From Candidatus Saccharimonadota bacterium (GTDB lineage: Bacteria > Pseudomonadota > Gammaproteobacteria > Johnevansiales > Johnevansiaceae), in the NCBI RefSeq assembly GCF_000300075.1, contig NC_018677.1:60001-92000 (forward strand): 32,000 nucleotides of DNA. The letters run 5' to 3'. The notes beneath the pieces were generated by a model. It searched no databases and was not told the DNA's origin. It worked only from the letters and a program-made list of their open reading frames with translations. A program made the translations under genes and the position numbers. Shown here piece after piece: positions 15,446-17,344 of the stretch. Within the stretch, counting starts at the first letter, position 1, and the number at the start of each line of letters is the position of its first letter.

Positions 15446-16164
15446 TACCTACAAACTACTTAAATACACACATATAACTACAAACTAATAACTTATAAAC
15501 ATATTATATAAAAAATAAATAATAATAACATATATATGTATAAAATATAAAAAACTATATATAAATACAAACTTTTAAAAGCAACAAATAACATCTAAAT
15601 AAAAACAAACTAACAACTCTAACCTCTAACATTCTTTATTCATACATATAACATCTAATAACTAACATAACTTTAATATTACATATTAGTAATTAATATA
15701 ACCGAAACCAATAAAACAACACCAGCAAATATATAAATTCTAAATAACATAGAACAATATAACGAAATAACAATATACCATATATAAACAACATATATGG
15801 AAAGATAAAGGCAGATAAAAAAAAAGAAAGCAAACATATGATATCTAATAACATCATCTAAATAACATTAAACATATAACTTAGAAGAAAAGAAACATCT
15901 AACAGCAAAAATTACACTAAACATATAACATAAATAAAAAAGCTATAAAAAGGGAAAGATAATTAAGAACAACACATCTAAACACTAAATATTAAATATA
16001 ACAGGTAATAAAAAACAAAAAATTATAAATGCTAACAGCTATAAACATAAAAACTTAAGAATTAAGAAAAATAAAACTGCAAAAAACAAAGAATCAGATG
16101 AGCAATACTGCAAAACTACACTATATAAGTAAATAACACAGAACAAAGCATGCCACATAAACAG

Positions 16165-16235
16165 GCGAACATAGTTTAAGGGTAAAACATTAGCCTTCCA
16201 AGTTAATGATACGGGTTCGATTCCCGTTGTTCGCT
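16165..16235 (+). tRNA. tRNA-Gly (anticodon UCC), glyT-like
   Basis: GCGAACATAGTTTAAGGGTAAAACATTAGCCTTCCAAGTTAATGATACGGGTTCGATTCCCGTTGTTCGCT parallels E. coli glyT. Anticodon loop CTTCCAA. Confidence 0.9.
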
Positions 16236-16242
16236 AATAATC

Positions 16243-16315
16243 GCTCATGTAGCTCAGTTGGTAGAGCACACCTTTAGTAAAGGTGAGGTCAACGGTTCAA
16301 TTCTGTTCATGAGCT
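16243..16315 (+). tRNA. tRNA-Thr, thrT-like body with anticodon AGU (A at wobble position 34)
   Basis: GCTCATGTAGCTCAGTTGGTAGAGCA CACCT TTAGTAA AGGTG AGGTC AACGG TTCAATT CTGTT CATGAGC T. Aligns position-for-position with E. coli thrT (CACCC TTGGTAA GGGTG), so the anticodon is AGT at 16276-16278. Confidence 0.85.
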
Positions 16316-16333
16316 CAAGCAGTTATAGTTGTA

Positions 16334-16406
16334 AGGTCAGTAGCTCAATTGGTAGAGTAGCGGTCTCCAAAATCGAAGGGTGGGGGTTCAATTCCCTCCT
16401 GGCCTG
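16334..16406 (+). tRNA. tRNA-Trp (anticodon CCA)
   Basis: AGGTCAGTAGCTCAATTGGTAGAGTAGCGGTCTCCAAAATCG...GGGGGTTCAATTCCCTCCTGGCCTG. Loop CTCCAAA. Canonical position just upstream of secE. Confidence 0.92.
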
Positions 16407-16426
16407 AAGAAAAAATAGGAAAAACG

Positions 16427-16771
16427 ATGAAAAAAAACAAGCAAAGCAAAAAAAAAGATTATTTAAAGTTGTTGTTTTCTATTCTGAATATATTAATTGC
16501 AATGTATTTATTAAAAAAAAATAAATATATATTTTTATGTTTGTATAGTTTGAGTTTATATTTAATGTTAGTTACTGTAAAAGGAAAAGAATTAAGAATT
16601 ATAGGAAAGATTGCAAAAAAAGAAATACAAAGTGTAGTGTGGCCAAAAAAAAAAGAAATAATAAAGACAACAAGCGTAGTTTTATTAATTATATTTATAA
16701 TAAGTATTATAATATGGACATTAGATACTTTAATTAGTGGATTAATAACAATTATGATAAATCAAAGCTAG
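16427..16771 (+). CDS. secE: Preprotein translocase subunit SecE
   Basis: 114 aa, hydrophobic. C-terminal EIQSVVWPKKKEIIKTTSVVLLIIFIISIIIW matches the conserved SecE TM3 region. Lies between tRNA-Trp and nusG. Confidence 0.9.
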   Translation: MKKNKQSKKKDYLKLLFSILNILIAMYLLKKNKYIFLCLYSLSLYLMLVTVKGKELRIIGKIAKKEIQSVVWPKKKEIIKTTSVVLLIIFIISIIIWTLDTLISGLITIMINQS

Positions 16772-16786
16772 TTAAAGGGAAAACAA

Positions 16787-17344
16787 GTGAAAAAAAGATG
16801 GTATGTTGTTAATATATATTCAGGTTATGAAAAACAAGTTATAAGTGATTTAAAAACTAGAATTAAAAGATATAAATTAGAAACAGCATTTGGAAAAATG
16901 ATAGTACCTTCAGAAACTTTGTTTGAAAAGATAATAGTACCTTCAGAAACTTTGTTTGAAAAGATATCAGGTAAAATACGTAAAAGTGACCGGCAATATT
17001 ATCCAGGATATATATTAGTAGAAATGGAATTAAATGATAAAACATGGAATTTAGTAAATGAAACAAAAAGAGTAGTTAGATTTATAGGATCAAATGTAAA
17101 AAAACCTGCCGTTATAAAAAAAAATGAATTTAAACAAATACTAAGTAATGTAAAAAAACATATAGATCAAAAACTTTTAAAATTAGGAGAAAGAATAAGA
17201 GTGCTAGAAGGTCCTTTTGCTGAGTTTACAGGTATTGTAGAAGAAATAAATTATGAAAAAAAGAAAGTTAAAATTAGTGTTTTAATTTTTGGCAGATCAA
17301 CTCCAGTAGAAATAGACTTTTATAAAGTAATTAAGGATATCTAA
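16787..17344 (+). CDS. nusG: Transcription termination/antitermination factor NusG, carrying an 11-aa internal tandem duplication
   Basis: 185 aa with a GTG start. [25 protein letters not shown], and KOW region [41 protein letters not shown]. Confidence 0.96.
16901..16966 (+). repeat. Perfect 33-bp tandem duplication, in frame within nusG
   Basis: atagtaccttcagaaactttgtttgaaaagata at 16901-16933 and 16934-16966, identical. Encodes [11 protein letters not shown] twice. Confidence 0.97.

Follow-up and report, generated by a model that had tools for sequence, protein, structure and literature searches.

A bacterial tRNA-Thr gene that carries A at the wobble position 34, in a genome in which no deaminase gene is found, raises the question whether this base is used as it is encoded or is converted to inosine, and if so by which enzyme. 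Such a gene lies at 16243-16315 on the forward strand of the window, by which is meant the whole stretch of 32,000 nucleotides that was analysed; positions are given in its numbering (contig NC_018677.1 from 60,001) unless a genome position or another contig is stated. ARAGORN called a tRNA-Thr(agt) at 16243-16316, and Rfam RF00005 covered 16243-16315 over its full length with 65.6 bits and zero non-standard pairs flagged. The cloverleaf was not recovered by minimum-energy folding of the tRNA, a method that commonly misses it for unmodified tRNA sequences, and the covariance model was used for the structure in its place. The anticodon loop TTAGTAA occupies 16274-16280 and is closed by the pair U31:A39 (T16273:A16281), the whole spanning 16273-16281. 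The anticodon AGU, which the sequence-only reading had placed at 16276-16278, was returned there by ARAGORN and is present in the RNA reads, with A34 at 16276. G35 and U36 are intact, as are the pairs G1-C72 and C2-G71; the 3' CCA is not encoded.

The gene is preceded by tRNA-Gly(UCC) (16165-16235) and followed by tRNA-Trp(CCA) (16334-16406) in the same cluster, both on the forward strand and recognized by ARAGORN and Rfam, after which come secE (16427-16771), nusG (16787-17344) and rplK. This gene order is that of the thrT position. SecE and nusG, likewise on the forward strand, served as synteny markers for fetching the loci of other B. tabaci Portiera and of the Portiera of other whiteflies, respectively. 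The source genome consists of one contig of 351,658 bases with 26% GC and 33 tRNAs; its SecE matches the one in CP007563.1 (Portiera of B. tabaci MED, 357,461 bases) at every residue, and the relatives retrieved by NusG bear the name Portiera. Because of the synteny and a mean column identity of 93% with the GGU orthologues, the locus, which belongs to the Portiera of Bemisia tabaci, is confirmed as its thrT orthologue. The tRNA body is near-identical to those orthologues and the identity elements are kept, the missing feature being a genomic G34, since all B. tabaci loci have A at 16276.

The Thr tRNA set of the genome comprises AGU, CGU and UGU, and the whole-genome tRNA list holds zero copies of tRNA-Thr(GGU). 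The isoacceptor listing that the sequence-only reading had asked for therefore leaves UGU present and GGU gone, and its view that the gene is maintained is borne out: the gene is real, gives rise to sense transcripts and is alone in replacing thrT(GGU). Ten further Portiera loci of B. tabaci, drawn from NCBI, ENA and Logan, carry the identical 263-bp Gly-Thr-Trp cluster except for one base just before tRNA-Gly; a G34 allele was found in none of the 10, and contigs from two further runs also had A at 16276. A scan of JGI metagenomes for the A34 or the G34 allele gave no match. The Thr tRNAs of the MED Portiera genome were already given as CGT/TGT/AGT, uncommented, by Rao et al. (2015, PMC4438442 Table 3). 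Thr(AGU) had been taken for a rarity known from some Mycoplasma, which is too narrow a view: GTDB holds at least 120 matches, belonging, among the matches listed, mostly to Lactobacillaceae plus Mesoplasma, and it is in Pseudomonadota that the gene is scarce (1 of 400 other genomes). With AGU tabulated since 2015 and Thr(AGU) common in Lactobacillaceae and Mesoplasma, the gene by itself is a modest finding. The single pseudomonadotal match, a thrU-like arm with AGU in an unrelated gammaproteobacterium (G213:C1:1657242-1657277, minus strand), may be real or an assembly error.

A search for tadA, also suggested by the earlier reading, came out negative in all five Portiera genomes: no match to PF00383, PF14437 or PF02137 was obtained in any of them, and no ADAR/ADAT1 fold was found in Portiera. 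Evansia encodes a TadA of 159 aa with HAE and PCxxC motifs. A hidden or degraded tadA was rejected, as tblastn of the Evansia protein against the five Portiera gave noise only; the best match (E 3e-4, in the Portiera of T. vaporariorum, TV) was a ribosomal-protein-S2-like ORF with neither HxE nor PCxxC. Besides tadA, thrS is missing from the five Portiera and present in Evansia (also PMC5322561, PMC7821994); neither Portiera nor Evansia has the CCA-adding family or cmoB, tsaD and valS being present. As thrS is absent, the charging of tRNA-Thr would already rely on a synthetase from outside. Similarly, with no encoded CCA and no CCA-adding enzyme, the 3' end of tRNA-Thr(AGU) would need outside enzymes.

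The state of position 34 in the transcript was read from two stranded RNA runs of 2026 (X23 and X24), about 18% of each run being read and mapped to 15950-16850 (901 bases). All first mates lay on the minus strand, so the transcripts are sense. Read depth was unbroken from tRNA-Gly to tRNA-Trp, and six molecules ended at 16164, consistent with the processed 5' end of tRNA-Gly. Beyond the cluster, depth fell to zero near 16445, and over 16446-16724, most of secE, neither run had RNA reads. In X24, 15 of the 51 reads over 16276 (29%), with 14 start sites, had G instead of A, the cleanest G-bearing read showing zero other differences. This was the sole variant row over the 901 bases at a 1% threshold, about 280 of these bases being well covered. 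No indels or joints occurred in the reads over 15950-16850, and the single loose end in X24 was adapter. In X23, G was seen in none of 18 reads. The two runs differ with a Fisher p of 0.007 by reads, or 0.08 with the counts halved; as mates overlap, the 15/51 reads perhaps represent 8/26 fragments, and the RNA reads were compared with assembled sequence. The inosine option raised in the sequence-only reading thus has its sign in X24 and fails to show in X23.

These G reads are surprising because tadA is missing. An origin from the Portiera of another whitefly or from another bacterium was rejected: the 24-nt context of 16276 occurs only in Portiera among 401 Gammaproteobacteria, and GGU relatives differ from the B. 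tabaci gene at three or more other positions, so that foreign reads would have added variant rows, or else gaps where such tRNAs carry an indel in the D-loop; X24 contained no rows of extra differences, no D-loop gaps and no loose ends other than adapter. I34 is conventionally recognized from A>G at that position in cDNA, the share of G in Buchnera Arg(ACG) being 27-72% (PMC3439896). In our judgement the G reads at 16276 quite probably reflect editing, and from them we infer inosine at position 34 in the one run.

Which deaminase could act on this tRNA is suggested by the known specificities. Of 15 A34 anticodons, three (ACG, AUG and AAG) were modified by E. coli TadA, AGU being left unmodified (PMC11066159), and in Oenococcus oeni tRNAs for Arg and Leu are edited and Thr(AGU) is unedited despite the presence of TadA (PMC8072771). 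Reports of I34 in bacteria are limited to tRNAs for Arg and some for Leu, bacterial Thr(AGU) being reported as unedited (PMC8072771). The present loop, UUAGUAA, is not the ACG loop of TadA substrates. The eukaryotic Tad2/Tad3 (ADAT2/ADAT3) edits Thr, Val, Arg and further A34 tRNAs (PMC3711424, PMC8072771) and acts on pre-tRNA (PMC4446420). The substrates of ADAT2/3 are A34-bearing tRNAs for Thr, Ala, Pro, Ser, Leu, Ile, Val or Arg; the gene studied here is of this kind, as are Val AAC and Arg ACG in its relatives. Since bacterial TadA is reported to leave AGU unedited and Tad2/Tad3 edits Thr, the ADAT2/3 of the host is the best candidate, and the chance that it partly edits the Portiera tRNA-Thr(AGU) is, on this analysis, close to even. 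The literature searched yielded no account of ADAT being imported into a bacterial symbiont. Similarly, the literature on Portiera in connection with tadA, RNA editing or the anticodon contained, as far as the incomplete coverage goes, no discussion of tRNA-Thr(AGU).

The following sequence of events can be proposed. thrT has undergone a transition from G34 to A34, visible against the GGU relatives, and is transcribed within the Gly-Thr-Trp cluster, as the reads show. A share of the tRNA-Thr molecules would then be deaminated from A34 to I34, most likely by whitefly ADAT2/ADAT3, and I34 would read ACU and ACC much like the former G34. tRNA-Thr(UGU), the U34 of which is probably unmodified because cmoB is absent, would back up the ACN box. 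With I34 reading like G34 and this backup in place, it would matter little in family boxes whether A34 or G34 is present, and drift biased to AT may be what toggles them, the toggling itself being observed. The supply of deaminase would probably be kept useful by Arg(ACG), the sole plausible reader of CGU, CGC and CGA, whereas the Thr and Val tRNAs would be passengers of a host enzyme of broader specificity. The wider proposal, that ADAT2/3 delivered into Portiera replaces TadA and that, owing to the broad substrate range of this enzyme, eukaryote-style A34/I34 Thr and Val tRNAs are repeatedly acquired there, is put forward more tentatively. Against the host enzyme it must be said that the signal comes from one run, X23 being blank, and that superwobble by U34 explains the toggling of A34 and G34 equally well.

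The relatives show how often position 34 has changed. AGU is also found in tRNA-Thr of the Portiera of Singhiella simplex (SiSi), whereas GGU occurs in G004, TV, the Portiera of A. dispersus (AD), Evansia and three further whitefly contig sets. In a seven-gene tree one GGU lineage (L249) is sister to B. tabaci (support 100) within the clade that holds SiSi (99). This implies that Thr position 34 changed twice, either by two gains or by a gain and a reversion. tRNA-Val(AAC) was seen in place of Val(GAC) in TV (G003:C1:220745-220820, minus strand) and AD (G001:C1:227923-227996, minus strand). As the Portiera of A. floccissimus (L260), the sister of AD, and all others examined keep Val(GAC), the AAC of TV and that of AD are two independent gains. 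By sequence, then, at least four G/A changes at position 34 have occurred in Portiera, twice in Thr and twice in Val, in family boxes only. In a comparison of five Portiera covering 31 orthologous tRNAs, positions 33, 35 and 36 are invariant and position 34 varies only in the Thr and Val family-box tRNAs, always between G and A. All gains of A34 are confined to the lineage without tadA.

The closing pair of the anticodon stem had been taken as a compensated change indicating a maintained gene. This argument had to be given up: the 31:39 pair is already T:A in GGU relatives and hence older than A34, and it is labile across Portiera, being often mismatched in relatives (T-T, G-T, C-A), as it is in SiSi, L250 and AD. 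In the S. simplex Portiera, Thr(AGU) has a U31-U39 mismatch, and tRNA-Thr(UGU) (G002:C1:59631-59703) starts with G-U-C, its identity pair C2-G71 having become U2-G71; both may reflect relaxed identity rules after the loss of thrS.

An effect of A34 on the decoding of the ACN box, as predicted by the sequence-only reading, was not evident from codon usage. Over 188 orthologous genes the Thr codons of B. tabaci Portiera are ACU 37%, ACC 5%, ACA 49% and ACG 8%, so the dominance of ACU and ACA that it had also predicted holds (86%). ACC is not depleted, occurring at 54 conserved Thr columns versus 56-63 in GGU Portiera; relative to other NCC codons, its odds ratio is 1.41 and 1.22 in the AGU lineages versus 1.50-1.89, with overlapping intervals. 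Neither is GUC depleted in the Val(AAC) lineages, nor CGA. Pro, and in B. tabaci also Ala, is read by a single U34 tRNA, which means that ACC could be covered through superwobble of Thr(UGU), irrespective of the editing of A34. Codon usage was rejected as a test of A34 against I34: it is uninformative because the single-U34 Pro box uses NNC about as often and the intervals overlap. In the same 188 genes, C-ending codons in two-codon boxes are about twice as common in the B. tabaci and S. simplex Portiera as in other Portiera, which fits an altered mutation spectrum after the loss of dnaQ.

The Arg box bears on the supply of inosine. tRNA-Arg(ACG) (genome 50577-50650, outside the window and 26 kb away) is retained in all Portiera although tadA is missing. 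The CGN box has tRNAs ACG and CCG only, Arg(UCG) being absent, and CGA accounts for 17% of the CGN codons in B. tabaci Portiera (9-17% across Portiera). Use of CGA without Arg(UCG) points to a possible need for inosine in Arg(ACG). CGN codons make up 41-44% of Arg codons in Portiera versus 63% in Evansia, a shift to AGR that is also known from tadA-less Mollicutes (PMC3711424). This shift suggests that I34 is not fully supplied in Arg, a point against the host-enzyme proposal.

Of the other explanations, all of which we consider unlikely, the one that survives best is that unmodified A34 works, having drifted in under superwobble by Thr(UGU), and that the G reads stem from a minor DNA allele (a GGU reversion, the sample being pooled or polyploid) or are artefactual. 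In vitro, unmodified Thr(AGU) reads ACU, ACC and ACG (PMC11066159, PMC3711424). The lack of a deaminase gene in Portiera, the blank X23, the absence of cmoB together with the existence of single-U34 boxes, and the slightly lower, if overlapping, ACC ratios in the AGU lineages are all in its favour. Moreover, the GGU lineage sister to B. tabaci makes gain or reversion easy here, and since the lineage is without dnaQ and mutL (PMC5322561), minor DNA alleles are plausible. However, this would require a random polymorphism to fall, as A>G, on precisely the wobble base and nowhere else in the roughly 280 well-covered bases, and G34 occurs in no B. tabaci assembly, the cluster being invariant. If the G reads were DNA variation after all, the gene would be no more than what drift ordinarily produces in a reduced genome.

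It is rather improbable that host ADAT2/3 edits tRNA outside the working pool, in RNA from degrading cells or RNA leaked into the bacteriocyte, the ribosomal tRNA keeping A34. Such a course would suit editing that is partial and sample-dependent (29% versus 0%) and a codon usage in which no dependence on I34 is visible, and off-target host modification has been proposed for the tRNAs of cicada symbionts (PMC6581868). On the other hand, ThrRS and the CCA-adding enzyme are missing, so that outside enzymes must already reach the working tRNAs, and the use of CGA without an Arg(UCG) tRNA speaks against it as well. Less probable still is a bacterial TadA, supplied by a co-symbiont (Hamiltonella, Rickettsia or Arsenophonus) or by a gene that the whitefly gained horizontally and the specificity of which has widened. 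Secondary symbionts do share the bacteriocyte (PMC4438442), which could explain the differences between samples, and whiteflies hold many genes of bacterial origin (PMC4607527, PMC8659303), but the TadAs tested leave AGU loops unedited (PMC11066159, PMC8072771) and the text of PMC4607527 mentions no deaminase. A sequencing error or decaying duplicate, for which the relaxed anticodon stems of the relatives might be cited, can be dismissed in view of the single copy, the Rfam score, the intact identity elements, the transcription, the 10 concordant loci and the AGU of the S. simplex Portiera.

Partial editing by host ADAT2/3, the reading preferred here, can be set beside known systems. tRNA-Thr(AGU) of Mycoplasma capricolum has an unmodified A34 according to Andachi (1987) and Inagaki (1995) as cited in PMC3711424 and PMC11066159. 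Portiera resembles this species and O. oeni/Lactobacillaceae in having a genomic A34 in an AT-rich genome, with a UGU partner and no GGU, which are the features of the unmodified-A34 type. It differs in that M. capricolum and Oenococcus keep TadA and leave the Thr tRNA unedited, whereas Portiera is without tadA and yields G reads; in addition, its gene is an independent derivative of gammaproteobacterial thrT, and the CGU isoacceptor is kept. With the eukaryotic tRNA-Thr(IGU) made by ADAT2/ADAT3 it shares an A34 Thr tRNA and partial A>G in cDNA, and the other A34 tRNAs of Portiera, Val AAC and Arg ACG, are also of ADAT2/ADAT3 substrate types; here, however, the tRNA body is bacterial and symbiont-encoded, and the enzyme is a candidate only. 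Buchnera tRNA-Arg(ICG) (PMC3439896) is likewise from an insect endosymbiont with partial A>G at position 34 (27-72% there, 29% here), but Buchnera encodes tadA and edits Arg only. In Hodgkinia and Sulcia (PMC6581868) tRNAs are also matured by activities that the symbiont does not encode, host supply having been proposed; unlike that study, the main text of which makes no mention of inosine, the present case specifies a single site, a single chemistry and a single candidate enzyme from the host. The tadA-less Mollicutes (PMC3711424), with unmodified Arg(ACG), have similarly lost tadA, kept the ACG gene and shifted to AGR; Portiera differs from them in keeping Arg(CCG) and in its 41-44% of CGN.

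What appears new is the combination of tadA loss, A34 gained repeatedly in tRNAs of ADAT type and A>G confined to one site, which was not found in the literature searched. How symbionts with tiny genomes mature and charge their tRNAs while lacking the genes to do so is a standing problem (PMC6581868), and there are few direct indications that a particular host enzyme acts on a symbiont molecule. A>G at one defined base would offer a cheap read-out, from ordinary RNA-seq, of the access of a host enzyme to Portiera. If the inosine is true, it would be an exception to the limitation of bacterial I34 to Arg and some Leu tRNAs. It would also repeat in nature, on a small scale, the route that has been proposed for the expansion of A34 genes after a broad deaminase becomes available. 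Should ADAT2/3 indeed be delivered into Portiera, the result would be a bacterial tRNA-Thr(IGU) and a case in which the decoding set of a symbiont is reshaped by an RNA-editing enzyme of its host.

Some further features of the cluster may be mentioned. tRNA-Tyr is missing from it (16164-16406) in the B. tabaci and S. simplex Portiera and lies here at genome position 147681, other Portiera retaining the order Tyr-Gly-Thr-Trp; tuf is absent between the Thr and Trp tRNAs. In tRNA-Trp(CCA), G27 stands opposite A43, a non-standard top pair that leaves an anticodon stem of 4 bp, and several relatives have C at this pair. Portiera is listed among the bacteria that were checked for tRNAs of this kind (PMC13092985).
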